Positions 34,454 through 50,529 of a DNA stretch of 64,000 nucleotides are shown here, piece after piece. Made by a program: the position numbers and the translations under genes. Numbering within the stretch: the first letter of the stretch is position 1; the number at the start of each line of letters is the position of its first letter. Location: the IMG/VR virus record IMGVR_UViG_3300013126_000021, positions 9,404-73,403 of that record. One strand, given 5' to 3'. The notes below the pieces were generated by a model that was not told the origin of the DNA, ran no database searches, and saw only the letters and a list, made by a program, of their open reading frames with translations. The stretch is from a virus.

Positions 34454-34669
34454 TTATTTTTTTGGCACTTGTGTGCCTTCTAATTTTTTATGTACTTTGA
34501 TTTCTTTACAATCTTGTACAGGTTTGCCATCTTTGCCCATAACTTTCTTGCCATCATTCGTGATTTTGTCAACGCAAACCTTTTTTACTTCAGCAGCAAA
34601 AGATATATTATGATAGCTTAGAAGTGGAATAGAACCAACTACGAGAGCAATGAATAGAATTTTTTTCAT
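34454..34669 (-). CDS. Small secreted protein with two Cys
   Basis: Signal-peptide-like N-terminus. Confidence 0.7.
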   Translation of the reverse strand: MKKILFIALVVGSIPLLSYHNISFAAEVKKVCVDKITNDGKKVMGKDGKPVQDCKEIKVHKKLEGTQVPKK

Positions 34670-34923
34670 TTTAACAGCCCTTTATATTTAGGATTAGGTT
34701 GTTCTTCTTTTTTTGCAAACTTTTCTGCTACAGTCACTCCTAGCCCCATGATTGCGATATACATCATGCCATCGTAAAGATGTGGATCTACTTGATACCC
34801 GAAAAATATATTAGCAAAGAAAGCTATTGAACAAAAAATAAATGCAAGAAAAGTTACAACACGTTTACTGCTAATACCATCATCATTTATATTCGATTGG
34901 AAGATAGACAGTAAACTTGGCAT
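34666..34923 (-). CDS. Two-TM holin-like protein
   Basis: SSKR followed by two TM helices; in the lysis cassette. Confidence 0.6.
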   Translation of the reverse strand: MPSLLSIFQSNINDDGISSKRVVTFLAFIFCSIAFFANIFFGYQVDPHLYDGMMYIAIMGLGVTVAEKFAKKEEQPNPKYKGLLK

Positions 34924-35363
34924 TATAGTTCTGGGTGTTGTGTGGGAGGAGGTGCTAGCTTTCCATTGTATCCTACAACAACCGGACCGGTATAATGCAT
35001 TGTCGGAAGGGAAGGTTCTATCTTAGCAGGTTTTGCCGGCTTCTTAACTTCTTCCATAGTTGTTTTGAATGAATCTGTCGCTTGTTTTTGTGCAGCAAGC
35101 ATTGCTTCTTTATCTTCTTTACTAGTGCCCGCAAGCATAATGCCAGACAATGTTCCCGTTAAGAATGTTGCAATCGGCACAATCAACTCAAAGAATTTTT
35201 GATCGATGGGTGACATTGCATCAAGAGGTTGTGTTACAAAAATAATTGAATAGAGAACAACAAACACGATTCCCGTGAGTGTCATTGCAAGACAAATTCC
35301 TACAAAGAATTTAAGTCTCGCCATCAATTGTTCTTCAGTGTAAATCATTGGCTTATTTTCCAT
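34923..35363 (-). CDS. Two-TM membrane protein
   Basis: Two hydrophobic helices, Pro-rich tail. Confidence 0.7.
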   Translation of the reverse strand: MENKPMIYTEEQLMARLKFFVGICLAMTLTGIVFVVLYSIIFVTQPLDAMSPIDQKFFELIVPIATFLTGTLSGIMLAGTSKEDKEAMLAAQKQATDSFKTTMEEVKKPAKPAKIEPSLPTMHYTGPVVVGYNGKLAPPPTQHPEL

Positions 35364-35616
35364 TTTTCACTCCTGCTTGCTGTTGACATGTTGTGCATTG
35401 TGCTGGGGCAACATTTTCAATAGCTTTTTTATTTTTGAATATGTGCTCTGGGCAAGTTCTGGTAACTTCGCATTGAGGTTTTTTGCACATTTCACTTTCC
35501 CAATTTTTGGGGTCTTGGCAAGGATAACGAAATCTATCCGCAGCAAATAGTGCAAGAGTAAGGGGAATGAATAAGATTACAGCAAATGATAGTAGTAGTT
35601 TTTTATCACTCACCAT
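35353..35616 (-). CDS. Membrane-anchored Cys-rich protein
   Basis: TM then RYPCQDP...C...C...CP. Confidence 0.7.
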   Translation of the reverse strand: MVSDKKLLLSFAVILFIPLTLALFAADRFRYPCQDPKNWESEMCKKPQCEVTRTCPEHIFKNKKAIENVAPAQCTTCQQQAGVKNGK

Positions 35617-35617
35617 A

Positions 35618-36238
35618 TCAAACTCCTAGGGCATGTAACGCATGCTCATAATGCTTGATTCTATCATCTAGCCCTATTGTACCACCATTGATTCGCTTAG
35701 TCAATGTCAGAATGTCACCTTTGTCTGCCCATTGATTCAGTTTATTTGTTTCCCAAAACCAACATGCGGATTGTGCAGCACCTTCAAATGTTATTAAATA
35801 CTCAGATGCTTCTTCTGGGCTAATTTCAAGTGATGCAGCAAACCATGTATAGTTGTGTCGCCCTGTAAGTTGTATTAACCCTCGCCCACGAAATCTGAAT
35901 CCGTCTCCGCTTTCTTCATCGCCATTACCCATACGACTTGCATAAATTCGATTCGCAATTGCTTCTTGCTTGTTAGGTCTTGACGCATAGTCCTGAGCAA
36001 TTGCATCGTTCGGAAAATACTTAGGAAATACTTTACGAAGTGACTGCCAACGATAATTAAGATTTTCTACTAGTGCAGTAAATCCTGCCGATTCATGCGA
36101 GCATTGTGCAATGAAAGCGGCAACACGTTGAGGAGTATTGATTTCATATTCAGGCAATAGTTGTTCAAGAGCGGTATGCCAATGCTCAACATAAGGATTT
36201 TTTGGTAGTAATTGTTTTAATTGTTCTTGTGTAATCAT
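35618..36238 (-). CDS. GH19 endolysin
   Basis: AQCSHES, ENLNY, FRGRGLIQLTGR, RINGG. Confidence 0.95.
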   Translation of the reverse strand: MITQEQLKQLLPKNPYVEHWHTALEQLLPEYEINTPQRVAAFIAQCSHESAGFTALVENLNYRWQSLRKVFPKYFPNDAIAQDYASRPNKQEAIANRIYASRMGNGDEESGDGFRFRGRGLIQLTGRHNYTWFAASLEISPEEASEYLITFEGAAQSACWFWETNKLNQWADKGDILTLTKRINGGTIGLDDRIKHYEHALHALGV

Positions 36239-36504
36239 TTTACTTCCTCAAAAATTTTTTTATGCGCTTTGTACCATCCTATCCATGCTTGACTTTTAAT
36301 TGAACATTCGTGGTAAAGTGTATAGTTATCTGTTACAGTTTTTGCCACATCACTTAGTTTTGCATCTTTTTCTAATTTTTTTAAATCAGTACAAGGGGTT
36401 AAAAGTGTTTCTGGTGCAAGAGGAAAATTTTGTTTTACTGGTACTGGTGTTGAAAAACACCCAGTCAATAAAAAACAAAACGATATTATGACAGCAACTT
36501 TCAT
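36235..36504 (-). CDS. o-spanin (Rz1-like lipoprotein)
   Basis: Lipobox LLTGC, Pro-rich, follows the i-spanin. Confidence 0.8.
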   Translation of the reverse strand: MKVAVIISFCFLLTGCFSTPVPVKQNFPLAPETLLTPCTDLKKLEKDAKLSDVAKTVTDNYTLYHECSIKSQAWIGWYKAHKKIFEEVK

Positions 36505-36935
36505 TTTATATTTTCAGTTGCTTGATTGTGCGCATCAATGAAAGTGGGCGGTATTTCACATTTATTATCAAATTTGACAACTTCACGATCAATATATTGA
36601 ACTATATTTTGGCCTCTTTCTTTTACTATTCTTTCTTTATAGACAACCTTTTCAACGACTTTAATTGTTTCTTTCACACCTTTTGCTTCAGCTTCAGCTA
36701 ATTTTGCTTTAACTTCATTTACTTTAGCTAACCAAGATTCATTATTTGCAATTGACCCTGCCATGTAAACACCAATTACAACTAGTATAATTGAAACAAT
36801 TTGTATGGGCGTTCTGTAAATATAAATTGCTGGTATTGGAATAAATTTAATTAAATAAGTTGCAAAGAATCCTAGTAATCCTATTATCAATAAAGCATAA
36901 AAAAACCAATTTGGAATCCATTGAAGTATCCACAT
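36501..36935 (-). CDS. i-spanin (Rz-like)
   Basis: TM helices, coiled coil, C-terminal Cys. Confidence 0.75.
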   Translation of the reverse strand: MWILQWIPNWFFYALLIIGLLGFFATYLIKFIPIPAIYIYRTPIQIVSIILVVIGVYMAGSIANNESWLAKVNEVKAKLAEAEAKGVKETIKVVEKVVYKERIVKERGQNIVQYIDREVVKFDNKCEIPPTFIDAHNQATENIK

Positions 36936-36936: not shown

Positions 36937-37119
36937 TTAGTTTATCTTAGGTTTTCTTTTTACCATTGGTTGTAGAATTGTTTTCTTTTTTCTTTTTAAA
37001 TAAACACCAGGTTCACCACCCTTTTCACCAGTTCCGGCTATAGCACCACCTGAAACAACGTTCGTTGGTCCTGGTGAACCTCCCATCATATCCTCATTGA
37101 ATTGCTTAAAAGTTTTCAT
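36937..37119 (-). CDS. Small putative head internal protein
   Basis: N-terminus MKTFKQFNE resembles the T4 capsid-targeting sequence. Confidence 0.65.
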   Translation of the reverse strand: MKTFKQFNEDMMGGSPGPTNVVSGGAIAGTGEKGGEPGVYLKRKKKTILQPMVKRKPKIN

Positions 37120-37502
37120 ATTTTCCTTAAAATATCTGCGATATTCATATCAATTAAAATATCACTTGAAAAGATATCTTTACCTTTTATTCCTTTAACT
37201 TTTTCTGGCATATAATTTAAGTATAACAAAAAAGTTTTTAGAACATCGTAATCTTTTTCATCTATTTTAAAAAATAAAATTCTAGTTGCAGGTTCTATAT
37301 CAAAAACATTATAGAGTAATATAATGTGATTTAAAATTAATCTTTCTTTTAATGTCTTTGTGACCTTATATCTTCTAAACAATCTTTTTAAATACTTTGT
37401 CCTCTTTAAATCACTTTCAAATTCACTCATAATACAATGAGGTGAATTATATGCCTTCATAGCATATAAAATAATATTTTCATCATTTAAATCCTCAAAC
37501 AT
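37116..37502 (-). CDS. Conserved T4-like hypothetical protein (ERLILNHII.LYNVF)
   Basis: Recognisable motif, packed ORF. Confidence 0.8.
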   Translation of the reverse strand: MFEDLNDENIILYAMKAYNSPHCIMSEFESDLKRTKYLKRLFRRYKVTKTLKERLILNHIILLYNVFDIEPATRILFFKIDEKDYDVLKTFLLYLNYMPEKVKGIKGKDIFSSDILIDMNIADILRKI

Positions 37503-37507
37503 AATTT

Positions 37508-37532
37508 AAAATGGGCCACCTCAGGTGGCCCA
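37508..37532 (-). terminator. Intrinsic terminator
   Basis: TGGGCCACC-3nt-GGTGGCCCA hairpin followed by TTTT on the minus strand. Confidence 0.75.
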
Positions 37533-37537
37533 ATTCA

Positions 37538-38224
37538 TTACAGAAGAGTGAGAATTGCGTTCGAAGAGGTATATACCGTGTTCGAATTAGCCAAGTTGTT
37601 ATTTGCTGTAATTTGAACACGATAGTAATACAAGTTAGCATCAACGTCAGTTGCATAGACTGTCAATGAGCTTGTCGTGTTACCAACATATGTTGTATTT
37701 GTTGTTATACCATTCGCCGCTGTAGCATAAGTTGTACCATCTGTTGAATATTGCCATAGATATGAAAGTGTTGCATTTTCTGGAACAACAGTTGTAGTAA
37801 CAGAGAATGTTCCGCTATTTCCTGCTCCAGCAATGTATTGTACATTTGTTGGTGATGTAACAAACGTCAATGTCGTATCGACAAGAACAGCATCTTCTGT
37901 GGCTGCTGCATCATTTTGAACTTCTGCGACACAGGCTAATACTTCCCATGTGATACGCCCGGCGCGCCCGCCGGAACCAGTAGTTTTTAATACCCATCCT
38001 GTGCCAGGAATTGTACTGTCCGCTGCCTGCACTTCGAATTTGTCCGCCATGAAAAGACCGACTGTTTCATTCGTAACGTAAACGTCTGAAGTTGTGTTAC
38101 CGAATAATAGAGCAACGTTTGCTGCTGTTGGTGCTGCGGCAGCTTTGTTTACACCAGTTGATACCTGGCTAACAGCCCAATATGGTGCATTTGCTGCATT
38201 ATCGTGATTTCCCCATGAGGACAT
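37538..38224 (-). CDS. Virion structural/decoration protein with C-terminal Ig-like domain
   Basis: YLWQYSTDG...SLTV...YYRVQIT; A/T/N-rich; TAAATA late-promoter motif upstream. Confidence 0.7.
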   Translation of the reverse strand: MSSWGNHDNAANAPYWAVSQVSTGVNKAAAAPTAANVALLFGNTTSDVYVTNETVGLFMADKFEVQAADSTIPGTGWVLKTTGSGGRAGRITWEVLACVAEVQNDAAATEDAVLVDTTLTFVTSPTNVQYIAGAGNSGTFSVTTTVVPENATLSYLWQYSTDGTTYATAANGITTNTTYVGNTTSSLTVYATDVDANLYYYRVQITANNNLANSNTVYTSSNAILTLL

Positions 38225-38255
38225 TTTTTTCTCCCTAAAAGATTCTATTTACTAT

Positions 38256-40391
38256 TTATTGTGAATTAGAATTAGATCCATTCTTCATATTTAATTTCGT
38301 TTTGAGAACAGGGTCTATTTCTATAGTGTCTCTAGGTTTTCCTGTCATCGTTTTTCCACCTTTCAAAATCATTTTCGCATTATTTAATTCCGAATCGGAT
38401 AAATTTTTATTCTTTTCTGTTTTTTCCCAATCATATATTGTTTCTTTTCTAAGCCCCTTTTTCTTGTAGAGAGCTTTGATCATTCTGGCGGATTTTGATT
38501 TTTCTTTAGTCATTTTTGACTCCATTGCCTTGACAGAGTTATTTGCAGACAATGGTGAATCTTCTATTCCGTAAATTCCTTCGTTAACATTTTCAACTTC
38601 TTCTTTTGTTGCTCTCCAGCCACCACCTTTAGATTTATACCACTTTGATGCCCAACCATTTGCATATGCAGAGTTACCTGTAATAGTAATTAATCCGTTC
38701 TGAACCATAACCCATGTTTCATTTTCCGTAGTTGGGCACCATACATCTTCATAACCAGCATCCTTTCTGTAAAGATTTTGTGTTGAATGATATTTTTTGT
38801 TTCTGATGTATGTTGCATTGACCATGTCATCACGATTATTTGTGTTTACATAATATCCGTTTAGATACGAAGCAAGAAGTGATGCCCAAAGATGTTCATA
38901 TTCTTTCTGAACGAAACCAAAAGTATGTCTGTCTTTTATTTTCGGAGAAACTCCTTTATCCCAACCATCATAAACAATAGAACTTGCTAAAAATATTTCT
39001 CTTTCTTTTTCATTCATAGATAATATTTTTTCAATCCAGTTATCTTTTTTTGACCAATTCTCTATTATTAAAGAAGATTGATTTTTTAATACTGAACACA
39101 TTAAAATTTTCATGTGGGTGTTCAAATCTTTAGTTTCAATCAGTTCACTGCCATTTGATTTCGATATCACCCACTTATGATTTGGTGTACAACGAATTGA
39201 AAATCCTGTTGGTTTTCCTATTTCCAATAAAGGTGCATTTTCGTAATAATGTTTATGTAAAACTGGTTTCCATTCCAACTCATCAATCTTCATATTGTAC
39301 GTTAATATCTCATCACCAATTTCCAGGTCTTCATGTGAAATTGGTCCTTTTTTAGAAATTGCTAAACTATCTAAAGGCACACATGGATATACATCAAACT
39401 TTGATCTAGCAAGAGACTTTGCTCTTGCCCAAAGTTTTGGATTTGTTGGCGAATTCTTTTCGTCGATTTGTTCAATTTCTTCATTTTTTGGTACACAATC
39501 TGGTACCATCTTGTTACCCTTCTTCTTCATACCAACTTGTTTGTGTGTAACCCAGCAAGCTTCATCGACAGATTCCTTTGACAGTTTGCCTTTACCAAAG
39601 TTTGATACATTTACTGGCTTGCCACCCTTACCGGCTCTATCTGCAACTGGGTCATGCTTGCGTTTTGCAGCAACAGCGGCCGCTCTTTCTTTTTTGGAAA
39701 GTTTTGCTCGCTTTTCATTTGACATACATTTCGGTTTTGGTTCACCTGGCTCACGGGCGCAAGGACCAATTGCTTCACCTTTGCTATTAATTCTTTTCCA
39801 ACCACCTTCAGGATCTGTTTTACTGAACCACTTTCTTAAGTCTTCTCTAGTGATATGAGAATCTAAGTCTTGCGTGTCGGATTGTTTTTTTAGTTCATTA
39901 ATATGCTCGACTTCTTCGTTCCAATCATCACCGCGTTCACCCATACCAGATGTTTCGGCTTTCATTTTTCTATGTTTGAACAATTTGAATTCGCTGGACT
40001 TTGAATATTTGTTTCTTTGATTGCCGTCCATAGCCCTTGGATCAAGCCCTTTTGACTTGATAAATGACATGAGTAAACCGGTACCAGCTTCATTCACAAC
40101 TTCTTCTGTTGTGCCCATATCAGTATATTTGGCATGATCTCTTGAGAATTTCTTAAATCGATCCGTTCGAGCAAGATTTAAACGATCATTGAGTGAAATT
40201 GTTCTAGGATCACGACCCATTGCTTTGATATACTTCCATAGAATCTGCGTATTCACTTCATCCAATGGAGCATGTTTTTTTGACCATGGCTCCATTGGAT
40301 CAGTATCACCATTTGCCAATTTACCCATTACAGATTCTTTTTTGCTTTTTTTATAAGCTTCTAAAAAAATCTGTTTTTTGCGTTCAGTCAT
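38256..40391 (-). CDS. Modular putative internal head protein containing an intein
   Basis: Basic modules separated by EE-x-x-(I/V)-x-E linkers; Hint motifs. Confidence 0.8.
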   Translation of the reverse strand: MTERKKQIFLEAYKKSKKESVMGKLANGDTDPMEPWSKKHAPLDEVNTQILWKYIKAMGRDPRTISLNDRLNLARTDRFKKFSRDHAKYTDMGTTEEVVNEAGTGLLMSFIKSKGLDPRAMDGNQRNKYSKSSEFKLFKHRKMKAETSGMGERGDDWNEEVEHINELKKQSDTQDLDSHITREDLRKWFSKTDPEGGWKRINSKGEAIGPCAREPGEPKPKCMSNEKRAKLSKKERAAAVAAKRKHDPVADRAGKGGKPVNVSNFGKGKLSKESVDEACWVTHKQVGMKKKGNKMVPDCVPKNEEIEQIDEKNSPTNPKLWARAKSLARSKFDVYPCVPLDSLAISKKGPISHEDLEIGDEILTYNMKIDELEWKPVLHKHYYENAPLLEIGKPTGFSIRCTPNHKWVISKSNGSELIETKDLNTHMKILMCSVLKNQSSLIIENWSKKDNWIEKILSMNEKEREIFLASSIVYDGWDKGVSPKIKDRHTFGFVQKEYEHLWASLLASYLNGYYVNTNNRDDMVNATYIRNKKYHSTQNLYRKDAGYEDVWCPTTENETWVMVQNGLITITGNSAYANGWASKWYKSKGGGWRATKEEVENVNEGIYGIEDSPLSANNSVKAMESKMTKEKSKSARMIKALYKKKGLRKETIYDWEKTEKNKNLSDSELNNAKMILKGGKTMTGKPRDTIEIDPVLKTKLNMKNGSNSNSQ
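38673..39383 (-). mobile_element. Intein (237 aa) with a degenerate LAGLIDADG-like core
   Basis: N-terminal CVPLDS, block B CTPNHKW, block F DVWCPTT, end ITGN followed by Ser+1; exteins rejoin as DVYP-SAYANGW. Confidence 0.9.
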
Positions 40392-40403
40392 GGTCTTTCC
40401 TTT

Positions 40404-42380
40404 TTACTTTTCACCATAAACATTTGGATATTTTTTCTCCATTTCTTCTCTTTCTTTTTTATGTTTATCTATAAGCGCATTCATTTTTTTAGCTCTTTCT
40501 TCTGGGTCATATCCTGACTTTTTCAGTGATGCTTTAAATTTTTCTAAAGCTGTCATTTTAGGTTTTGCTGCTTCTTCTACATGTTTTGGTAACCCAGAGT
40601 GTTTAGTTTTTGCAAAATCTCTAGCCGCTTTAGTTGTCATAGATTTTGCCGCTTTAGCAACTTCTGGGCTTGCAGGTTTCATACCTTTTTTAGCAGCATA
40701 CACCATACCCATAAACTTTTGTTGTGCTTGGCTTACAGATTTTTCATTAATCTGTTCTTCACTTATCTTTTTTTTTTCACTTACCTCGACACTTTCTTCA
40801 TGCTTACCTCTTCTTGGATCCCATCTACCTGCATATGGGCTTTTGCTAGACATTTTATCTGTCATTCGGTCCTCTGGAGGCCTGGGAGGTGCGGCTTGTG
40901 CTCTTGCTTTTAAAGCTGCATCTGATTGTGACTTAGACATTGGTGCTTTTGCTTTGATGCCCTTTTTATTTGCAAAAGCTGCAAATTCTGCTCCTAGGTC
41001 ACCTTCCATTACATCGTTTGATTCCTTTTTCATTTTCTTTTCATCTGATGAAGCACCGAAAGTACCGTGAACAAGTTTATCAAGATTTCTGTGAAATTTA
41101 TTTTCCTTTTCTGCACTTACACCAGAGGTGGCTTCATCAATTTGAATTTCTTCTCTAACTAATTTAATTTTTTTAAAATTACCACTTTTTGACATTTTGT
41201 AATGTGTCGATAGTGCCTTTTCTTTTGTTGGATGAATTTTTGAATTAAAAGTTTCACCTTCTTTTGTTTGAGCTGTAACTCTCCAACCTTCTGTCACACC
41301 TTGCCCTGCTATTTTGTCGCCGGGAACACCGCCCCTCAACTTGATAACACTTTTAGCACCGTGACCTGCGGCAATGCGTTTGGCATCAGCATCATCTTTG
41401 GCAACGAACTTTTTGACTTGTCCATTACGCATCATCAACTCATACTTTTGTGTCTTACCTTCGCCTTCCGACACAACTTCTTCCATTCTGGCAGATGCTC
41501 TTTTAATGCCTCTTGCTCGCATATCAGCTTTGTGTTGTTGACGGTCAGCCAACTCTGAAGATGCCGTTCGTTGTGCCTTAGTTAATTCTGTGTTGTTTGC
41601 CTTTTCTCTATCCGATGCAGCAATTCGGGTATGGACTCCTAGACGCCTTGTTGCTTTTTCCTTGTATCTTGCGGCTAGGTCTGCACTAATCTCATCAATT
41701 TGTTCGACTTCTTCTTTTTGTGCTTTACTTATTATTCCTCCACTTTGTGCTTTACCTTTTATTCGTCTACCTGTAACTTGGCGAGCTAAAAATTTAGCAG
41801 CACGTTCATCATGCCCAGGCATTAAACTTGTCATAGGCACATTACCTTCTGGTGGTTTGCGAACATTATCTTCGCTGTCATAACCTTTTCCCTTTACTTT
41901 TCTAGCTGGGATTTCTGCTTTTTTTGGTTTTGAATCTGGCTCACCTTTTCGTTTTAAACCATATGAATCACCATAACCCCAACTGCCCTCATCAACTTGC
42001 TCCGATTCTTCTTGAACTTTAACATATTTGCTGATAGGTTCACCTGCTTTTGGCATTTTACCGCCAGTGTCTTTAGCAGAAATCTCATGTCGTGCACCAG
42101 CATTGGTAATTGCAACAATCTTACCTGCTCCACCACTTACAGTTTTAATATGATGTGGATTTTTTCCTGTATATGCCGACTCTTTAACTTGTTCAGCACC
42201 TTTCTTTTCACCACGGAGTATGGCAAAATCATGGGCATCGATTTTGTTGTTTTTATTTTTATCGATCTTATGCTGCCCACCTTTTAATTCTTCCATTTTT
42301 GCTTTTAAGTCAGCTTCGAGGATCGTTTTAACTAGGTTGGCAATTGAGTCCATTTTTGCAAATTTATTATCAGAATACAT
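40404..42380 (-). CDS. Modular putative internal head polyprotein
   Basis: About ten Lys/Ala-rich modules separated by EEVEQIDE-like linkers; EF-hand-like DKNKNNKIDAHDF. Confidence 0.75.
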   Translation of the reverse strand: MYSDNKFAKMDSIANLVKTILEADLKAKMEELKGGQHKIDKNKNNKIDAHDFAILRGEKKGAEQVKESAYTGKNPHHIKTVSGGAGKIVAITNAGARHEISAKDTGGKMPKAGEPISKYVKVQEESEQVDEGSWGYGDSYGLKRKGEPDSKPKKAEIPARKVKGKGYDSEDNVRKPPEGNVPMTSLMPGHDERAAKFLARQVTGRRIKGKAQSGGIISKAQKEEVEQIDEISADLAARYKEKATRRLGVHTRIAASDREKANNTELTKAQRTASSELADRQQHKADMRARGIKRASARMEEVVSEGEGKTQKYELMMRNGQVKKFVAKDDADAKRIAAGHGAKSVIKLRGGVPGDKIAGQGVTEGWRVTAQTKEGETFNSKIHPTKEKALSTHYKMSKSGNFKKIKLVREEIQIDEATSGVSAEKENKFHRNLDKLVHGTFGASSDEKKMKKESNDVMEGDLGAEFAAFANKKGIKAKAPMSKSQSDAALKARAQAAPPRPPEDRMTDKMSSKSPYAGRWDPRRGKHEESVEVSEKKKISEEQINEKSVSQAQQKFMGMVYAAKKGMKPASPEVAKAAKSMTTKAARDFAKTKHSGLPKHVEEAAKPKMTALEKFKASLKKSGYDPEERAKKMNALIDKHKKEREEMEKKYPNVYGEK

Positions 42381-42393
42381 TTTTTTCTCCGTT

Positions 42394-42705
42394 TTAGCAG
42401 TTCCACTTTCTTAAAGAAAGTGCTTTTCTTGTTGGTCTTCCCTTTTCATCTTTCATTGGTCCTGGCATTCCACTCATTCTTGCGCAGAAAGATTTTCTTC
42501 TATTCCAAGCCTTTGAGCCTTTTTTTAGCTTTGAAGGTTTTGTAGTAACGGCCATGGAAAGTTTTGAACCTGGATTTTCTCTTCGATAAGAAGCAATACC
42601 TTTACGATTCAAACCTCCAGATGGATTTTTTCCTTCTTTTCTTTGCCAAGCGGCGCTAGCTTCATCTAAAGATTCTTCATTTATAAATTGTTTGAAACTT
42701 TTCAT
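42394..42705 (-). CDS. Basic putative internal head protein
   Basis: MKSFKQFINEESLDE leader; RRKSFCARM...LRKWNC. Confidence 0.75.
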   Translation of the reverse strand: MKSFKQFINEESLDEASAAWQRKEGKNPSGGLNRKGIASYRRENPGSKLSMAVTTKPSKLKKGSKAWNRRKSFCARMSGMPGPMKDEKGRPTRKALSLRKWNC

Positions 42706-44591
42706 TTTTTCTTCTTTTTATTTTGGAGGTTAGTTTCAATTTTATTTAATGTTTCCATGGGCTCTTTATTCGTGGGACCGTGAGCAGTTCCAGTAACACC
42801 CATATCTGCGCTAGGCGAATCAATTGCTTCATTTCTAAAATTTGCGAAAGATTTGTGTTTTACCTCTGCGGTACTATTATATTTATTTTCTTTTTGTTCT
42901 CTATATGTGACCATTCCAAGCCCAGACATAGGATAAACTGTTCCTGATCCTCTTGTATCATATTCTGGTGATGTACCGGAAACTTTTAAGACCTTCCCTG
43001 CTTCTGAGTTATTGGCTTTTTGCTTCTTGGCTTTGATTTTGTCGGCGTCTTGTTGAAATTTTGTTTCTTTCTTTTCGGTGCTTCTGATGATGGTTGGAGA
43101 GCTTTCGGAGTAGGTTCTGAAGACATAGTTGGTGTTGGATTTAACGTCTCCGTCTGTAACTGAGTCTGCTCTACCTTGTTTTCTGACGAGTTGGCAACTG
43201 GGGCAGATGTTGTCAAGTAGGCGTTGACCTTTCTTTCTTGGGAATCCACTAAAGCGTCCAGTGGATGTCTTGTTTGTTCCACAGGTACAGTTTCTTTTTT
43301 CGGTAATAAAAGTTTTGCTATTTGTTTTATTCTTTGGAACATATTTTTCTCCAGTTATAGCTTGTTCAAATAAATTATTAATGTTCATCTTTTTGTTTCT
43401 TAACATCCAAGTATTTGCTATTTCATTTTCAACTTCAATATCTAAAAACAAATTTATTAATTCATATATTAATGTTAAGTCCTTTTCCTTTTCACTTTTT
43501 TCGAATTCGTTTGCTTCCTTTAAATCAACAGAATTGTCAAATTCGAAATACTTTTTAAATGTTTTCTTAAAATTTTCAGAAATTAATTGTGTTTTTTGCC
43601 ATCTTTCTAGTCGGACAGATTCTTCAAGAACTCTTGTATGTTTTTCGTTTCTTTGCTTTGAAGAATCGTTTGAAGTGTTAACAAACACCATCAATGTCTC
43701 ATATCCGAGTTCTTCCAGTTCATTTTTTATTTCGACGATCATATATTGATCATTTGTCGTACTATTAATTATCAATGGATTCCTGTTTCTTATTGCTTCC
43801 TGTCGAATATCATTTGAAGATTCATATAATTTATGTTTATTGTTTAGAATAGATATTGCCAAATTAGCATTCATTTCAACAATTTTTTGACTAGGGATAC
43901 ATTCTCTGATAATGATATCTTTTCCTGATCCAGGACCACCTGTCACGAAAATTGCTTTAAATTTTCCATGGTTTACATTTTCATGTATTCCCATTCCTGA
44001 CCTTACATCACGAAACAATTCTTTAGCGTGTGCCTCCGAAACATGAGCAGGTACCCCTTGCTTAAAGGAAACAAAATCATTATTTTTTGCATGTTCACGC
44101 ATTTTTGATGCAGACATTCCTTCGACACCTTCGGAATCCGGATCTCTTTGCCCAGCAGATTTGACTTCTATTTTCTTAAAATTAAATAATGCCCCCTCGT
44201 GTGCCCCATTATATTTGTTCAATGTTTTTTCGTATTCATCAACACGATCTGAACCTGCAACCATAACTAGATGATCGTGCCCTGAATGGTAAAGTTTAGA
44301 TGCGTGCTGTATAAAAGAGGGTGTTTCCTTACTTGAGGAATAGATATTGGTTCCTGGAAAAAACCTTTTAGCATGTTTTACTTTTTTTGTAACTTCTAGA
44401 GGATTCTTTTTAGAATCTGTTGAATGTGAAATTATTATATGATGTGGAGCATTATAATCCCTTGCTATGTCTTTGACATGTTTTACAAGTTTTTCATGCC
44501 CAATAGTAGGTGGATTCATTCTACCAAAAGCCATTATAACAGGCCTTTCGGTCTTTTCGTTTTCTTCTACTTTTTCTAGAAAGGTTTTCAT
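42702..44591 (-). CDS. HxGH-type nucleotidyltransferase (cytidyltransferase-like) fused to a P-loop kinase domain
   Basis: FGRMNPPTIGH, GSDR, MSASKMR; GGPGSGKD. Confidence 0.85.
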   Translation of the reverse strand: MKTFLEKVEENEKTERPVIMAFGRMNPPTIGHEKLVKHVKDIARDYNAPHHIIISHSTDSKKNPLEVTKKVKHAKRFFPGTNIYSSSKETPSFIQHASKLYHSGHDHLVMVAGSDRVDEYEKTLNKYNGAHEGALFNFKKIEVKSAGQRDPDSEGVEGMSASKMREHAKNNDFVSFKQGVPAHVSEAHAKELFRDVRSGMGIHENVNHGKFKAIFVTGGPGSGKDIIIRECIPSQKIVEMNANLAISILNNKHKLYESSNDIRQEAIRNRNPLIINSTTNDQYMIVEIKNELEELGYETLMVFVNTSNDSSKQRNEKHTRVLEESVRLERWQKTQLISENFKKTFKKYFEFDNSVDLKEANEFEKSEKEKDLTLIYELINLFLDIEVENEIANTWMLRNKKMNINNLFEQAITGEKYVPKNKTNSKTFITEKRNCTCGTNKTSTGRFSGFPRKKGQRLLDNICPSCQLVRKQGRADSVTDGDVKSNTNYVFRTYSESSPTIIRSTEKKETKFQQDADKIKAKKQKANNSEAGKVLKVSGTSPEYDTRGSGTVYPMSGLGMVTYREQKENKYNSTAEVKHKSFANFRNEAIDSPSADMGVTGTAHGPTNKEPMETLNKIETNLQNKKKKK

Positions 44592-45784
44592 ATGTTTCTT
44601 ATTCCCTCAAAATTTCTTCTGGAGAATTCTTGTCTGTTTACAAATTTATCCGTATCGTTTTTGTGATGGAAGACATATCCTTCCGGATTTGCATTTTCAC
44701 CTGCATGTTGGTGTTGAAATTGTTGGTGTTGATTCATAACATTAATCAGAACATTCTTGGCATTCTGTAAATGTTTATGCATTTTAAATAAATTATTATA
44801 ATGTTTCTTATTTAATTCTATTTTATTCAGTTCACTTTTTAAATCATTTTGTCTAGAAATTTTGTTTTTTTCAACTTTTAATTTATCGATTTCTTTAGTT
44901 TTCTTGTTTTCTAACCAATTTTTAAAATTTTGATGTGTGGGCGTTTCACCGCTTCTTACAGTGTGATTCATATAAGCTTCTAAATGCCCACCGACACCTT
45001 GATGCATTTTAGTTCCGGCATACATGTCGTCACCATGTGTATTATGTATTTCTTCAGCTTTACTTATATGTTTATTGAATTCTGCGCGGTCTTTTGGACC
45101 AAAATGCACTTTTGAAGTATCCATTCTTGGATCGACACCAAAGACGTCAGAATGCTCATTAAAATTTTCATGATCAACTTCATGGTACGCATTTAAGCTT
45201 CCTGAATTTTTACCTTCATATTTTAAATGAGTAACAACACCTATTTGTGCTTTTTTTGCTTTTTTACCCAGTTCACCCTTTGCGGTGTAAGTTAAACCGG
45301 AAGGATTAGGATTAAACGAAACACCACCTTCCTTACTTGCTTTTTTATCTTCAGGAGAAAACATCATATCACCTTGATACACACCTTCTTTTGGTGCAAT
45401 TTTAGGTAAATGTTTTAACGCATGTTTAAGTTTTTCTACAAGCCCAGGAGCATGCCCATGATTTCTCACAATGTCTTCTGGTGTGTAATTTATTTTTGGT
45501 GTTTTATTAAAGGCAGATTTTGATGCTACGAAAAACTTTCCGTTATCAGGATGTCGACCATATACGATTGCAGGTGAGCCATCATATTTCGTGGTAAGTT
45601 CAGATGTTTTTTTGCCTTGAGAAATATGGTCTGCGGATGCTCTAAGTGAAGAAAATGAGCGTAATGCACCTTTTTCACCGTTTTGAAGTGCTCGATCCTC
45701 AACATGTGTTAAATGTTTAATTTGACGACTGGCGCCTTCTTCTGGATCTTCTTGTTCCAGTAAAAACTTGGCAAAAGATAACAT
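44588..45784 (-). CDS. ATP-dependent ligase-fold (RNA ligase-like) protein
   Basis: KYDG motif I, QGD, EGYV, KFV; start revised to MLSFAKFLLE after GAGG. Confidence 0.65.
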   Translation of the reverse strand: MLSFAKFLLEQEDPEEGASRQIKHLTHVEDRALQNGEKGALRSFSSLRASADHISQGKKTSELTTKYDGSPAIVYGRHPDNGKFFVASKSAFNKTPKINYTPEDIVRNHGHAPGLVEKLKHALKHLPKIAPKEGVYQGDMMFSPEDKKASKEGGVSFNPNPSGLTYTAKGELGKKAKKAQIGVVTHLKYEGKNSGSLNAYHEVDHENFNEHSDVFGVDPRMDTSKVHFGPKDRAEFNKHISKAEEIHNTHGDDMYAGTKMHQGVGGHLEAYMNHTVRSGETPTHQNFKNWLENKKTKEIDKLKVEKNKISRQNDLKSELNKIELNKKHYNNLFKMHKHLQNAKNVLINVMNQHQQFQHQHAGENANPEGYVFHHKNDTDKFVNRQEFSRRNFEGIRNI

Positions 45785-45822: not shown

Positions 45823-46539
45823 TTAGTAACCCCAAATCTTTAAATCAACCCATTTATCCATATCATCACGTATAATTGAATGTTTACCTATATTAAATTT
45901 TCCATCTACAAATGGATGATCAATATCAATTCTTTGATATGGTATCTTAAATAGTTGCAGTTGTGCTTCGAGCATAGCATGCCCACAAAATTCAACTGCT
46001 CTGTTATAATGATGTTTTAGGAAAAGATATGTTGAAGAATATATTTTCATTGTTTCAGGATCAGCAATCGCAAATTGATCGTTAAATAGAGGATTAGTTC
46101 CATTTGTGTCTTTTGATATGTACACTAAACCATTTCGCAATTCTTCGAAATTAATTTTTTTATTCAGCGCGAAATCAAATCTACTTCTTATAACAAAATC
46201 ATATTTTTTGTTTAGAAAAAGTTCACCTAAATTTCTTAAGTGATCAGATTTAAAAATTGAATAAAACATTGATGTGCAAAAATTTGCTGGATGTGATGCG
46301 TTTCTGACCAGCATATCTGAGTTAATATTTTTATTTAATGGAGTATCAAATATTGAAAGGACGGGTTTGTATAAACTTTTTACTTCTTCGTAAATTTTTA
46401 ATTGTTTTTGTGCGTTATCATTCTTCCAAGAATGAAGGAAAATATCTACATCATATTGTTGTAAAAGATTTTTTTCTATGTATGCATAGGATTCTTTATA
46501 ACTTCTAGGTTGCCCGGATAGACAAAGCGCCAATTTCAT
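45823..46539 (-). CDS. Putative glycosyltransferase
   Basis: ALCLSGQPR, DIFLHSW, RSRFD, NDQFA. Confidence 0.7.
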   Translation of the reverse strand: MKLALCLSGQPRSYKESYAYIEKNLLQQYDVDIFLHSWKNDNAQKQLKIYEEVKSLYKPVLSIFDTPLNKNINSDMLVRNASHPANFCTSMFYSIFKSDHLRNLGELFLNKKYDFVIRSRFDFALNKKINFEELRNGLVYISKDTNGTNPLFNDQFAIADPETMKIYSSTYLFLKHHYNRAVEFCGHAMLEAQLQLFKIPYQRIDIDHPFVDGKFNIGKHSIIRDDMDKWVDLKIWGY

Positions 46540-46984
46540 TTGAGAATTTTTCGACATAATCTGTACACACTCCAAAAATTTTACTATTTTTTACATATTC
46601 CCAATAATCTTTATTCACTTCAGGTAAAACTGCAATTGAATTTTTAGTTAAGTGTTTCCCCGGATAAGCCCAGATAAAATTGCCTGATGTTAATGTGTAA
46701 TCATCGTTTTGGTGCCAAAAATATTCATAATGAATAGGTAAATCATTAAGCGCATGTAGTGCATCTAAATTTTTACAGTGTATCCATAAACCTTGCTTAC
46801 CTAAAAAATTAATCGGCACTTCATATTGTGGTTCATCATGGCCAAGAAACCATTTATTGTAAATTAACCAAACATCAATTTCACAATCATAACCTCTGCT
46901 TAGTGATTCTAAAATAAGATCGGGGGTATTTTCAATTTTTTTGTTCGGTCCATTAGTAAGCCCCCTATGTGCAATTAACTTCAT
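46505..46984 (-). CDS. PLC/GDPD-like phosphodiesterase
   Basis: IAHRG, EN, EIDVW, LGHD, IHCKN, GVCTD. Confidence 0.8.
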   Translation of the reverse strand: MKLIAHRGLTNGPNKKIENTPDLILESLSRGYDCEIDVWLIYNKWFLGHDEPQYEVPINFLGKQGLWIHCKNLDALHALNDLPIHYEYFWHQNDDYTLTSGNFIWAYPGKHLTKNSIAVLPEVNKDYWEYVKNSKIFGVCTDYVEKFSNEIGALSIRAT

Positions 46985-47700
46985 TTTATATACATCTCTT
47001 TTGGTTTATACTCGCCTAATGGCGTGTGCATTATTGTTTTACTTACCATGAATTCTTCCCAAGGAAACCCAAGTCTTTTTATGAAATGTTCAGTGACAAC
47101 GTGTGGGCAAAGTAATCCAGTCTCCCTGTAAATTTGTGGCAAATGATGAAGCAACTTAGAAAAAAGCCCGATTGTAAAGAAATTTCCAATCTGAATCATG
47201 TCAGAAGTTCCCTGACCCTTATGATTTCTATAACCCATAGTGTAAAATTTATTTCTATCAAAATTTGACAACTCTTGATTGAAAACTAAATCGGGGCGCA
47301 TTCGAATAACAAGATCATAAGTTTTACCCGTTTTGAACATGTAGTCTTCCATCAATGCTACGCCACGCCCAAGTTTAAAAAACATTGAGATTATGTTTTT
47401 AGGTACATGATAAAAATTTTCATATTGTCTGGCTCTCTGTTCAAAATTTTTTTCATAGTCTTCATAATGTTCTTTTCTCAACATTACAGGTTTATATGTT
47501 TCGATGAGTCTATCAAAATTAACCTCAGGTGCATTTTTGACGATGCCATGTGAACTATGTGGATCCCAATATGCTTCATTGTCCCATGTGTCTATAAAAA
47601 TATCTGGGGTATACTTATCGACAAAATGATGTTTGAAGTTGGGATATACTTTATCCCAACAACGCATATGTCCCGTTAATATTATGGCAACGTTCATCAC
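46981..47700 (-). CDS. Putative glycosyltransferase (paralogue of 45823..46539)
   Basis: AIILTGHMR, DIFIDTW, RMRPD. Confidence 0.7.
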   Translation of the reverse strand: MMNVAIILTGHMRCWDKVYPNFKHHFVDKYTPDIFIDTWDNEAYWDPHSSHGIVKNAPEVNFDRLIETYKPVMLRKEHYEDYEKNFEQRARQYENFYHVPKNIISMFFKLGRGVALMEDYMFKTGKTYDLVIRMRPDLVFNQELSNFDRNKFYTMGYRNHKGQGTSDMIQIGNFFTIGLFSKLLHHLPQIYRETGLLCPHVVTEHFIKRLGFPWEEFMVSKTIMHTPLGEYKPKEMYIK

Positions 47701-48302
47701 ACTCTCTCAAAAAACAAATTATCTTCATTAACTTGTGAAACTACACTTTTCAAAACAAAACCATTTTCCGTTAAAAATTGTAAAGCATCTTCTTTTGTAT
47801 GCCGCCCTTTATATAATCTTAATTCTGGTGCTTGTGGCACTTCTACAACACCACTTTGAACAATTTTAATTTTTTCTCCTAAACCTTTTAGTACGGCTAA
47901 ATCTGAGCCTTGAGCATCAATATGTAAGTGATAAATTTCGGAAATATGTGGAGCAAACTGTTCTAGCCAAGTGTCAAGGCGAAAAACAGGAACTTTAATT
48001 GTTTCACGCACTACAAAATCTGTTCTTCCGGGCCATGATTTATCTAAATTGTCGGAAAAAGAATTAAGCGATGCACTACCTGTATCACCTTGTACAAGAT
48101 TAAAATCAGAATGCCCGTTATAATCTGAAACAGCATGTTCGTAAACTTTATATCTATCTGAAAAATTTTTTGATTTTTCACGAAGCATATTTGCAAGTTC
48201 AGGTGTAGGCTCAAATGCATATACAGTAACATCTGAATTGTCTCTTGCAATATGCAAAGAATCTTGCCCCCAGTGTGCACCAACATCAAATAAAAATTTC
48301 AT
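47697..48302 (-). CDS. FkbM-family methyltransferase
   Basis: DVGAHWG, AFEP, HIDAQGSD. Confidence 0.9.
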   Translation of the reverse strand: MKFLFDVGAHWGQDSLHIARDNSDVTVYAFEPTPELANMLREKSKNFSDRYKVYEHAVSDYNGHSDFNLVQGDTGSASLNSFSDNLDKSWPGRTDFVVRETIKVPVFRLDTWLEQFAPHISEIYHLHIDAQGSDLAVLKGLGEKIKIVQSGVVEVPQAPELRLYKGRHTKEDALQFLTENGFVLKSVVSQVNEDNLFFERV

Positions 48303-48305
48303 TTA

Positions 48306-50511: not shown

Positions 50512-50529
50512 AACAAACCTTTTTTTCAA

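Follow-up and report, generated by a model that had tools for sequence, protein, structure and literature searches.

A probable polyprotein variant of the T4 internal-protein system in a T4-like marine myovirus

The window analysed here, a stretch of 64,000 nucleotides, is a fragment of the genome of a T4-like marine myovirus, and it raises the question of what is encoded by two long open reading frames, of 658 and 711 aa, that consist of basic segments strung together by short acidic linkers. The cluster to which they belong is embedded in the replication module, between helicase and primase genes and outside the head-gene block. The contig is 44% complete, and neither a prohead protease nor capsid genes were found on it. 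We propose, as the probable reading, that the cluster extends the principle of T4 IPI-III and Alt to polyproteins, a form of internal-protein packaging that has apparently not been described before; its linker-joined basic modules suggest a plug-and-play way in which numerous small proteins could be loaded into the head. All features below lie on the minus strand, and a slash within a peptide marks a candidate cut or an insertion point.

Linkers and segments of the two long reading frames

The 658-aa putative polyprotein (40404..42380) comprises seven basic segments with six acidic linkers between them: EESEQVDE (aa 124-131; 41988..42011), directly preceded by VQE and so open to a possible double cut; EEVEQIDE (aa 223-230; 41691..41714), which also recurs in many homologues; EEVVSE (aa 300-305; 41466..41483); EEIQIDE, with VRE before it (aa 410-416; 41133..41153); EESVEVSE (aa 528-535; 40776..40799); and EEQINE, with ISE before it (aa 541-546; 40743..40760). 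The 711-aa putative polyprotein (38256..40391), which matched several PHROG families at different positions, has five segments and four linkers, EEVVNE (aa 96-101; 40089..40106), EEVEHINE (aa 159-166; 39894..39917), EEIEQIDE (aa 304-311; 39459..39482) and EEVENVNE (aa 597-604; 38580..38603). All nine linkers quoted in an earlier note on this DNA were found, and EESVEVSE was added as the tenth.

The pattern E[ES]x(1-5)[IV][DNSE]E matched six times in the 658-aa ORF, four times in the 711-aa ORF and not once in six neighbouring proteins. When all 268 six-frame ORFs of at least 60 aa in the whole 73-kb contig were considered, the strict form EE-x(1-4)-[IV][DNS]E gave 10 matches in these two, compared with a single match in the remaining 266 (34,736 aa); none of 5000 residue shuffles per protein matched the observed linker count (means 0.026 and 0.032; maximum 2). 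The strict linkers delimit 12 segments, every one of which is basic once the linkers are taken away (pI 8.9-11.2, net charge +3 to +15). The bead-on-a-string build is real, and the modules are mutually unrelated, as the earlier note had said. Its module size of 30-90 aa is approximate, the strict-linker segments running from 11 to 145 aa with a further one of 293 aa, unless the weaker [LIV]xE sites enter the count as well. Its figure of about 15-20 effectors is conjectural: strict linkers give 12 pieces, and up to 22 would result from cutting at all [LIV]xE sites that lie outside the intein.

This intein, which had been overlooked, accounts for 237 aa of the longest segment, the fourth of the 711-aa ORF (Cys337-Asn573, with Ser at +1; 38673..39383), and is inserted at the conserved DVYP/SAYANGW of a module of about 56 aa. 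Residues 330-574 are 34% identical to DNA polymerase inteins of phi92-like phages (tblastn, E 9e-27); Pfam Intein_splicing is matched weakly, at an E of 0.0019 that falls short of the cut-off. In the close relative L039, the ortholog of the 711-aa ORF is uninterrupted exactly where the intein sits.

Recurrent modules and the motif at their junctions

Three modules recur widely. M4a, a 60-aa mini-domain (aa 306-364 of the 658-aa ORF; 41289..41465) at whose borders BLAST matches pile up, has a highly conserved core of about 45 aa, MMRNGQVKKFVAKDDADAKRIAAGHGAKSVIKL, and ends in GVTE/G. The DUF3008 module (KSVSQAQQKF...HVEE; aa 547-603 of the same ORF; 40572..40742) matched Pfam PF11450 (E 2.5e-5), and DUF6321 (PF19846, E 6.6e-23) is present as a free-standing 103-aa module (42394..42705) with the leader MKSFKQFINE/ESLDE/A. 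All three were found at varying positions in thousands of phage proteins; DUF6321, 80-98% identical across contexts, is C-terminally fused in thousands of longer ones. The 658-aa ORF has 2674 homologues at E<=1e-3, and those among the 150 listed measure 83-1477 aa and carry the modules at many positions. The modules occur both free-standing and reshuffled, and module content proved variable even between close relatives: in L039 the flanking genes are 84-91% identical (90% for the DUF6267 ortholog), the module content is different, the DUF3008 gene is split off and the intein is missing. The same modules are strung with a HicA-like domain in 15 of the 120 matches listed, and with Zeta-toxin/AAA_33-type kinase domains in 6 of those 120.

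That assembly or sequencing errors fused neighbouring small genes into long ORFs is hardly credible. The window is a metagenome-derived viral contig and one module forms a separate gene in L039, but hundreds of independent homologues have the same linker-joined multi-module build, and the linkers are conserved in-frame peptide motifs.

Predicted structures bore out the absence of a single globular fold. The AlphaFold2 model of the 658-aa ORF had a pLDDT of 55.8 and a pTM of 0.26, with 352 of its 658 residues below 50, and the pTM of the ESM Atlas model was 0.20. The M4a core folds by itself (beta-beta-alpha-beta, pLDDT 83-89, with floppy flanks), and the DUF3008 module reached pLDDT 86-96 over residues ~551-590. 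The M4a fold had no PDB match at E<=0.001, and no recognisable enzymatic or inhibitor fold was found in any module.

Directly before nearly every copy of M4a, DUF3008 and DUF6321 stands [LIVM]-x-Glu, and it is kept whatever lies upstream, be it another module, an acidic linker, an internal capsid-targeting fossil or a short N-terminal leader. At the upstream junctions of M4a (n=78), P1 is Glu in 62 and P3 is V/M/I in 59; for DUF3008 (n=63) P1 is Glu in 60 and P3 is L/I/V in 60, P2 being variable. Among 83 distinct DUF6321 contexts the corresponding counts are 66 (Glu) and 63 (L/I/M/V), and another 13 read as if the Glu were displaced by one residue. The motif of the T4 prohead protease gp21 is given as L/I-X-E in parts of PMC9026906; the aligned junctions match this type of cut motif, as had been suggested, and cleavage at them is predicted. 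An S77 (gp21-type) prohead protease is indeed encoded by relatives: PF03420 was detected in 5/5 related contigs at least 90% complete, a co-occurrence that comes from hand-picked large contigs and is without base-rate control, and in 13/47 contigs overall, the 34 contigs without it being fragments (6-44% complete).

Leader and linker appear to be equivalent, judging from the modules found behind them. The module behind EEQINE/ in the window, DUF3008, comes directly after an N-terminal leader, MKINQVITE/, in P0089 and P0120. An internal K-x-F-x-x-F-x-x-E is present in 11 of the 83 DUF6321 contexts, some retaining the Met (NMKTFGEFIQE/A), and S-SZBM1_194, a 707-aa module string, contains an internal ITYREFIAE/G, comparable to the leader MKTYQEFIAE/A of T4 IPII and IPIII.

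A motif as short as [LIV]xE need not be a protease site; it could instead cap the N-terminus of each module structurally. In that case the products would be uncleaved multi-domain proteins, of "polyvalent" type or DNA-binding, acting intact in the virion or the infected cell, and [LIV]-x-E with its acidic stretch would serve as a flexible spacer or a cap. We regard this as rather improbable. The junction motif always abuts a module and could therefore belong to it, and in its QGVAE/G version P2 Ala and P4 Gly are conserved, more than the T4 motif demands; polyvalent phage proteins are known, moreover, and some, such as N4 vRNAP, are packaged unprocessed (PMC5512222). However, three unrelated folds are preceded by the same motif, which also closes N-terminal leaders just 9-12 residues long that are similar to the capsid-targeting sequence defined by experiment in T4; complete leader fossils, Met included, lie exactly at junctions; and a Pfam search of the cluster found no polyvalent signature domains.

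Leaders, syntenic genes and virion proteomes

The four N-termini quoted in the earlier note are present, all on the minus strand, and a check against the T4 record (MKTYQEFIAE/A) upheld their likeness to the T4 capsid-targeting sequence. Besides the 103-aa DUF6321 protein, they belong to a 60-aa basic protein (36937..37119; phrog_3286, E 9.9e-7; leader MKTFKQFNE/DMMGG, with Phe at P3), a 629-aa protein (42702..44591; leader MKTFLEKVEE/N) and a DUF6267 protein of 398 aa from its ATG (44588..45784; PF19782, E 1.2e-91). That two of the four "MK..F" proteins are enzymes had escaped the note. The 629-aa protein combines a cytidylyltransferase/NMNAT-like domain with a P-loop kinase and a basic tail; it matched phrog_3041 and phrog_395 ("cytidyltransferase") and, weakly and below cut-off, Zeta_toxin and AAA_33. 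In the DUF6267 protein, which has a KxDG motif (TTKYDGSP), MLSFAKFLLE/Q is an extension N-terminal to the conserved core; tblastn matched it to 458 phage records, chiefly of T4-like cyanophages. Its ATG is at 45784, and the ORF listing runs on to a TTG at 45835.

The first 10 residues of the 103-aa protein share 5 with MKTYQEFIAE of T4 IPII/IPIII, a similarity that is not significant alone (E 2.2). Only three matches to K[ST][FY]xxFx(1,2)E exist among all six-frame ORFs of the contig. Two are the N-termini of the 103-aa and 60-aa proteins; the third, an internal capsid-targeting-like KSFANFRNE/A (42828..42854), is in the tail of the 629-aa protein. Of 142 homologues, 71 have [ILVFM]xE within the N-terminal 17 residues, compared with 30 +/- 4.8 when internal windows are taken. 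The N-terminus of the 711-aa ORF, MTERKKQIFLE, is a poorer leader, and the HTVC008M cytidylyltransferase leader is without the Glu. Neither T4 IPII nor IPIII is significantly similar to the mature parts (best E 0.04).

Two further members of the cluster are syntenic. The DUF7207 protein (128 aa; 37116..37502; PF23837, E 8.5e-38) has a similar ORF at its position in S-PM2 and S-CREM2, as judged by eye and without statistics. The other, of 228 aa (37538..38224), matched phrog_613 "head protein" (E 1.4e-8). At 29 nt upstream of its ATG lies ATAAATA (38253..38259), a candidate late-promoter core that we take to be the T4-type consensus and that is rarer than expected in the window (8 observed, 25.9 +/- 5.3 expected). 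The positional counterparts of the 228-aa protein are annotated as head protein (S-PM2p148) and virion structural protein (S-SZBM1_136), and the latter is listed in the S-SZBM1 virion proteome (PMC9146016).

Homologues of the cluster occur in purified cyanophage virions, in keeping with the packaging that had been postulated. The S-CREM2 virion proteome includes ORF154, a cytidylyltransferase, and ORF160 (PMC10665884); the 629-aa protein is 32% identical to gp154 (E 5e-26), residues 185-336 of the 711-aa ORF are homologous to gp160 (E 4e-12), and the 60-aa protein resembles the gp160 N-terminus, not significantly (E 0.096). That of S-SZBM1 includes S-SZBM1_140, a cytidylyltransferase with the leader MRFRQFIIE/A, and S-SZBM1_139, which occupies the syntenic slot of the polyproteins; S-SZBM1_194 is not named in the text of the same paper (PMC9146016). 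NMNAT-like proteins were noted in several cyanophage virions, and the cytidylyltransferase family was reported in those of S-SCSM1 and S-CBWM1 (PMC9602691).

It is very unlikely that these are replication-phase or metabolic (AMG-type) proteins whose virion detections reflect carry-over contamination. The cluster does lie within the replication module, cytidylyltransferase is usually classed as an auxiliary metabolic gene (PMC9146016), and in one virion-proteome study the authors warn that CsCl preparations may retain non-structural proteins (PMC12801897). Against this, four cyanophages (S-CREM2, S-SZBM1, S-SCSM1 and S-CBWM1) each provided an independent detection of the cytidylyltransferase family, the phrog_613 head protein forms an integral and syntenic part of the cluster, the leaders are capsid-targeting-like, and module strings adjoin the small-terminase gene in S-SZBM1 and Sf-CH phages, in S-SZBM1 between both terminase genes.

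Proposed processing and related systems

From these observations we infer targeting, cleavage, retention and ejection of the polyprotein pieces as follows. The short amphipathic leaders (MKSFKQFINE, MKTFKQFNE, MKTFLEKVEE, MLSFAKFLLE) would bring the proteins into the prohead scaffolding core, a helix ending in ...KTILE playing this role in the 658-aa protein. A T4-type (S77, gp21-like) prohead protease would then cut after the Glu of [LIVM]-x-E, at the leader ends and the inter-module linkers, and the acidic spacer itself might be excised where a second [LIV]xE precedes it (VQE/ESEQVDE/, VRE/EIQIDE/, ISE/EQINE/). About a dozen or more small basic pieces would be released, mostly helical or disordered, together with a few folded mini-domains; they would stay associated with the DNA and exit the head alongside it. 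Cargo may be gained, lost and moved through gene fusion and fission at leaders and linkers, so that any module with the junction motif could be packaged and released.

Most of the pieces look like DNA counter-ions, and their basic, largely disordered character suits internal proteins associated with DNA no less well than it does specific effectors against host defences. The proteins might be cut and packaged, yet structural: sacrificial prohead-core or scaffold-like proteins, expelled like the T4 gp22/gp67/gp68 fragments, or counter-ions that merely neutralise DNA charge, with no host role after ejection. We consider this unlikely, though worth weighing, given that every segment is strongly basic and mostly predicted to be disordered or a single helix, that an enzymatic or inhibitor fold is recognisable in no module, that gp21 cuts T4 core proteins into multiple fragments (parts of PMC9026906) and that lysines of T4 internal proteins contact DNA phosphates (PMC3012670). 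On the other hand, homologues were detected in mature virions, which implies that at least some pieces are retained, and relatives join the same modules to HicA-like or Zeta-toxin/AAA_33-type kinase domains. The extreme conservation of some modules, such as DUF6321, and the homing of an intein into one argue for specific functions rather than bulk charge.

Our preferred reading, a polyprotein form of internal-protein packaging, has several known neighbours. The cut motif of phiKZ is S/A/G-x-E; the inner-body and ejection proteins of this type thus differ from the window's in their cut motif and have no homology to them, and neither a repeated conserved linker nor a build of shuffled mini-modules is known to us from such systems. 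As described in parts of PMC9026906, PMC5694885 and PMC10052503, phiKZ, 201phi2-1 and SPN3US have many head-internal proteins that a diverged homologue of gp21 cleaves after Glu, frequently at several positions in one protein, and that are ejected into the host. Polyvalent proteins, known from phages and conjugative elements, have 2-15 domains per polypeptide and extensive domain shuffling (Iyer et al. 2017, PMC5512222), and capsid packaging, injection with the DNA and sometimes proteolytic processing were proposed for them; unlike the window modules, they have large enzymatic domains and often their own MPTase peptidase. That paper describes no conserved inter-domain linker, capsid-targeting sequence or prohead-protease link, and the word "cyanophage" is absent from it.

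In T4 itself, gp21 breaks gp22, gp67 and gp68 down into multiple fragments by cutting at several L/I-x-E sites (parts of PMC9026906). These scaffold proteins are acidic or helical, and most of their fragments are lost from the head, whereas the window pieces are basic, modular and shuffled, and have homologues in mature virions. T4 IPI, IPII, IPIII and Alt share with the window a leader of about 10 residues ending in hydrophobic-x-Glu (MKTYQEFIAE/A and MKSFKQFINE/E, respectively); T4 internal proteins are likewise small and basic, and their mature parts are diverse behind a conserved common leader (PMC3012670 and parts of PMC9026906). Those mature parts are not homologous to the window's, and T4 internal proteins are single-module genes, in contrast to the window ORFs, which join up to seven modules through cleavage-type linkers whose processing is predicted.

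Linkers, leaders and module junctions

The earlier note had proposed that two ORFs on the minus strand, p658 (658 aa, 40404..42380) and p711 (711 aa, 38256..40391), encode strings of small basic modules joined by acidic linkers, which would be packaged into the prohead and cut there. All four N-termini and all nine linkers that it quoted were found, as was a tenth linker. The strict form EE-x(1-4)-[IV][DNS]E occurs six times in p658 and four times in p711, and once in the remaining 266 of the 268 six-frame ORFs of at least 60 aa of the contig; none of 5000 residue shuffles matched the observed linker counts. The basic character of the modules was borne out in all 12 inter-linker segments, which have a pI of 8.9-11.2 and a net charge of +3 to +15, linker excluded. 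One of the two main rival explanations takes such pieces to be mere scaffold debris or DNA counter-ions. In our preferred reading, as released cargo, the acidic spacer itself could also be excised at three of the six p658 linkers, in which the acidic run is preceded by a second [LIV]xE.

DUF3008 (residues 550-601; score 24.8, Pfam gathering threshold 24) is the sole Pfam family in p658. A weak intein match is all that Pfam gave for p711, its extein parts having no match, and PHROG placed the same modules at differing positions in several families. Elsewhere in the cluster, the scores lie well above the gathering thresholds for DUF6321 (p103, 42394..42705, minus strand; 81.6 vs 28.5), DUF6267 (p398, 44588..45784, minus strand; 308.3 vs 27) and DUF7207 (129.4 vs 27). 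The polyvalent proteins described by Iyer et al. (2017) carry several effector or enzymatic domains per polypeptide, whereas Pfam revealed no such feature in p658 and p711, nor any of the polyvalent repertoire (MPTase, ArdC-N, methylases, PBECR and others). A phrog_459 'peptidase' at 21667-23760 was not taken as a candidate for the linker protease, as it has no Pfam match and nothing ties it to the linkers.

For three unrelated modules, we surveyed the residues directly before the module in all available homologues, counting P1, P2 and P3 back from the putative cut point (shown here by an arrow). Upstream of M4a, a conserved module of p658 (aa 306-364), P1 was Glu in 62 of 78 junctions and P3 was V/M/I in 59, QGVAE↓GSLNEG being typical. 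For DUF3008, 60 of the 63 junctions had Glu at P1 and 60 had L/I/V at P3, with a varied P2 (D/T/N/S/E/Q) and unrelated sequence further upstream. Among 83 distinct DUF6321 contexts, Glu occupied P1 in 66, plus 13 read as a one-residue shift, and L/I/M/V occupied P3 in 63. These junctions match the rule for gp21, the T4 prohead protease, which is L/I-X-E with the cut after Glu (PMC9026906). From their sequence, the module junctions look like protease sites. The other main rival holds that the motif is a structural cap and that the proteins stay intact.

The reading of the junctions as protease sites extends to the N-termini of the cluster proteins, which carry a capsid-targeting-type leader of about 10 aa ending in (L/I)-x-E. 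The leader of p103, MKSFKQFINE, shares 5 of 10 residues with that of T4 IPII and IPIII, whose N-terminus we could confirm as MKTYQEFIAE↓A, the type given in the earlier note. The starts of p629 (42702..44591, minus strand), p398 and p60 (36937..37119, minus strand) are MKTFLEKVEE, MLSFAKFLLE and MKTFKQFNE, the last having Phe in the P3 position; p658 shows ...KTILE at residue 22, and the N-terminus of p711 is a poorer fit. Within the first 17 residues, [ILVFM]xE was present in 71 of 142 homologues, internal windows giving 30 ± 4.8 for comparison. Only three stretches of the contig fit K[ST][FY]xxFx(1,2)E, namely the N-termini of p103 and p60 and KSFANFRNE↓A inside p629. A BLASTP comparison of T4 IPII and IPIII with the window proteins gave no significant match in the mature parts (best E 0.04); because the T4 internal proteins are mutually diverse, homology of the mature part is a weakly defining feature.

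Three kinds of sequence precede the same junctions: an acidic linker (EEQINE↓ in the window; EE-type in 23 of the 83 DUF6321 contexts), an N-terminal leader on its own (MKINQVITE↓KSVSK, as in the homologues P0089 and P0120) and, within the protein, a copy of a capsid-targeting sequence like that of T4 (11 of the 83 DUF6321 contexts, NMKTFGEFIQE↓A for one). The third kind is also present in S-SZBM1_194, a 707-aa string of cyanophage S-SZBM1, as internal ITYREFIAE↓G, and the KSFANFRNE↓A of p629 belongs to it as well. This interchangeability of leader and linker led us to read the strings as in-frame fusions of leader-bearing internal-protein genes: the polyproteins would have arisen as such genes were fused, and the leader cleavage site retained after each fusion would be the present linker.

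Module exchange, folding units and inserted domains

In an exhaustive phmmer search with p658, 2674 proteins passed E<=1e-3 and 602 of them E<=1e-10; the 150 matches listed are 83-1477 aa long, with the matched stretch at any position in the protein. The starts and ends of BLAST matches to p658 cluster at the borders of two modules (residues 291-310 to 361-370 and 531-550 to 601-610). DUF6321 recurs with 80-98% identity in at least 7942 longer proteins and is C-terminal in 82 of 83 distinct contexts; among the 120 matches listed, a HicA-like domain precedes it in 15 and kinase domains of Zeta_toxin/AAA_33 type in 6. The locus of a close relative, L039, has flanking genes 84-91% identical to those of the window, and its p658 counterpart contains other modules and lacks M3 and M4. 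There DUF3008 is a separate gene with the linker-like start NEELIDE↓, and the p711 counterpart is intein-free and carries an insertion of about 127 residues at a linker. Judged from this comparison, the relative is a natural experiment on module exchange. Free-standing and reshuffled homologues, for which the earlier note had advised searching, were found.

A group of phage proteins of 194-199 aa (P0172-P0236, for example P0176 and P0204, the latter present on 45 contigs) would bear a toxin-type domain between cleavage-type linkers: a capsid-targeting-like leader, a CW...C mini-module, a linker, a HicA-like mRNA-interferase domain, a further linker and DUF6321. In some cyanophages, module strings adjoin the small-terminase gene (S-SZBM1_194, at 6980-9103 of the S-SZBM1 locus; H64/H65 in the Sf-CH5 and Sf-CH8 records). 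The S-SZBM1_194 gene is flanked by the small and large terminase genes, away from the replication-side cluster; this location implies that the cassette is mobile within genomes.

The expectation of independent mini-domains agreed with structure prediction. Whole p658 had no global fold in AlphaFold2 (pLDDT 55.8, pTM 0.26, 352 of 658 residues below 50), the confident islands being isolated helices and the DUF3008 bundle, and its ESM Atlas model had a pTM of 0.20. M4a modelled alone gave a beta-beta-alpha-beta core with a pLDDT of 83-89 and floppy flanks. This confident core came from a dedicated alignment; the MAFFT alignment of 47 shuffled homologues was poor (9% mean column identity), so the low pLDDT of M4a in the whole-protein model is partly an alignment artefact. 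Foldseek found no match for M4a in the PDB at E<=0.001 (best 0.15), and its weak rows, including the small phage inhibitors Dmd and p56, were not usable; an ESM Atlas search with M4a returned unnamed viral clusters only, with scores <=0.80. Since modules are shuffled and no global fold is predicted, what we found is not the single globular fold of invariant module order that would have spoken against the polyprotein reading.

Residues 337-573 of p711 (237 aa; 38673-39383, minus strand) are an intein that had escaped the earlier note, with Cys337, a TPNH block and a ...GN end at residue 573 before Ser574, the penultimate residue being Gly and not His. Inteins of phi92-type phage DNA polymerases share 34% identity with it (E 9e-27), and in the L039 ortholog residues 336 and 574 are joined directly, the intein missing to the residue. 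Its insertion point, between DVYP and SAYANGW, is a conserved site of a module of about 56 aa that is intein-free in gp160 of cyanophage S-CREM2. The insertion implies that this site is strongly conserved, and a putative internal head protein is an unusual intein host.

Enzyme domains were likewise overlooked. p629 consists of a cytidylyltransferase/NMNAT-like domain, a P-loop kinase and a basic tail. DUF6267 of p398 may be ligase-like, in the manner of nucleotidyl-transferase ligases, the sole basis being a KxDG motif (TTKYDGSP) recognised by eye; PDB sequence searches with DUF6267 and p629 gave no matches. The DUF6267 gene always neighbours an NMNAT-like/cytidylyltransferase gene, which in the window is fused to the P-loop kinase, and the pair may constitute a virion-carried RNA-repair or NAD-related enzyme set.

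Prohead protease and virion homologues

The gp21 family (Peptidase_S77, PF03420) had no match on the 73-kb, 44%-complete contig, from which capsid genes and the head-gene block are likewise missing. The loci that encode M4a or DUF3008 relatives are from large phages. PF03420 was present in 5 of 5 related contigs that are at least 90% complete (2/2 and 3/3) and in 13 of 47 overall, the large contigs having been chosen by the analyst with no base-rate control; the remaining 34 are fragments of 6-44% completeness, with no complete small phage among them. In two complete jumbo phage genomes, G001 and G002, a gp23-type capsid protein is encoded beside the protease, and in G001 a cytidylyltransferase-like gene is followed by a string of 542 aa beginning with MKAREFITE↓A, in which there are five GV[AT]E linkers.

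Homologues of the cluster proteins are present in CsCl-purified virions. The proteome of S-CREM2 includes ORF154, ORF155, ORF156 and ORF160 (PMC10665884, Table 3). ORF154 is a cytidylyltransferase that starts MKNFSSFLTE↓A and aligns to p629 (E 5e-26), and ORF160 aligns to p711 residues 185-336 (E 4e-12), the alignment bringing a KEETEISE linker into register. For S-SZBM1, _140, _139 and _136 were detected (PMC9146016): _140 is a cytidylyltransferase with the start MRFRQFIIE↓A, and _139 occupies the syntenic slot of the polyproteins and, by eye, shares the CW...C mini-module. NMNAT-like proteins are recurrent in cyanophage virions (PMC9602691). The string S-SZBM1_194 is unnamed in the text of the S-SZBM1 virion-proteome paper (PMC9146016); very Lys/Arg-rich proteins yield few usable tryptic peptides, which we offer as an excuse and not as a result.

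The best-supported interpretation is that the cluster extends the T4 internal-protein system to polyproteins. The short leaders would direct the polyproteins to the head, where cleavage by the S77 protease would free many small basic pieces to be retained, ejected and put to their function. What the analysis establishes is the build of the strings, the statistics of the motif, the exchange of modules, the association with protease-bearing genomes and the occurrence of homologues in virions; the steps from targeting through cleavage, retention and ejection to function are inference. Original virion proteomes reportedly exist for S-PM2, Syn9 and P-SSM as well. A wider proposal, which we regard as possible and rather doubtful, is that T4-like marine and jumbo phages use a combinatorial 'cassette' head cargo, in which leader and [LIVM]-x-E linker together would act as a universal adaptor: any coding piece joined to it in frame (mini-inhibitors, HicA-type RNases, kinases, NMNAT-like enzymes) would automatically enter the head, be freed by the prohead protease and be injected before the DNA. 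The strings would then be fast-reshuffled anti-defence arsenals, and the very conserved DUF6321, M4a and DUF3008 would form a core of injected factors aimed at specific targets in the host.

Precedents exist for capsid-targeting leaders, for processing by gp21, for giant-phage head proteins that are cut more than once and for injected proteins of the 'polyvalent' kind. The open-access literature searched gave no description of linker-joined strings of shuffled mini-modules in T4-like cyanophage, pelagiphage or jumbo lineages, nor of the equivalence of leader and linker; DUF3008, DUF6321, DUF6267 and DUF7207 are unmentioned there, as are the linker and module peptides, save for one unrelated fungal match. 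Should the prohead protease indeed cut at the linkers, a single rule (leader plus [LIVM]-x-E) would cover three puzzles: how the phages of a very large ocean and freshwater group load diverse small proteins into the head, how fusion and fission of genes diversify this cargo, and why cytidylyltransferase/NMNAT-like enzymes are repeatedly seen in cyanophage virion proteomes. It would also give a functional context to these four widespread DUF families, which jointly comprise thousands of metagenomic proteins, supply dozens of candidate injected factors for bacterial-defence screens, and hint at a natural multi-cargo counterpart of the T4 packaging tag already in use in phage engineering.

Genomic setting of the cluster

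The window covers 64 kb of a 73.4-kb IMG/VR contig with an estimated completeness of 44%. PHROG matches across it outline a T4-type replication module on the minus strand, with DNA polymerase (55889-58423, phrog_262), a DnaB-like helicase (53173-54561), primase (32978-33997), NrdA, NrdB and a CobS-like ATPase. With p398, tblastn recovered 458 phage records, nearly all of T4-like cyanophages plus a few Pelagibacter and Methylophilales phages. Synteny around the cluster extends to S-PM2, HTVC008M, S-CREM2 and S-SZBM1, in the order helicase ... DUF6267, cytidylyltransferase, small basic proteins, 'head protein', DUF7207, ... primase. Megablast of the region against phage records gave no matches, which indicates that it has no near-identical cultured phage.

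Immediately downstream of the cluster lies a lysis cassette (34016-36935, minus strand), with a GH19-type endolysin (35618-36238) amid several small membrane-protein ORFs; in the T4 record, ipII and ipIII likewise adjoin the lysozyme gene e. The interval between helicase and DUF6267 (45823-53136, minus strand) holds genes of sugar/nucleotide-sugar type, among them DUF7796 and a HAD hydrolase fused to NTP_transferase (48306-49823), where S-PM2 has MazG and one small ORF only; the run looks like an inserted glycan-modification cassette.

The sequence TATAAATA is absent from the whole window (0 found vs 5.6 expected) and ATAAATA, a candidate T4-type late-promoter core, is depleted in it (8 vs 25.9 ± 5.3 expected), with copies at 38253-38259, 29 nt upstream of the head-protein gene, and at 42880-42886, inside the p629 ORF. 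Selection against spurious T4-type late promoters would fit the absence of TATAAATA and the depletion of ATAAATA; late transcription of the cluster was not called, these counts being too thin a basis for it.

Between 14000 and 20000 lies a G+C-rich island (48-54%, vs 31-40% elsewhere in the window) that contains a GP88-family protein (17108-17863, E 7e-38) and a sub-cut-off ArdA-like antirestriction match (14016-14495, E 3e-5); the segment may be a recent acquisition, either mobile or of host origin. At least eight tRNA genes (Leu, Val, Gly, Trp, Asn, Pro, Thr and Ala) are located at 62108-64000 on the minus strand, and a ninth is truncated by the end of the window.
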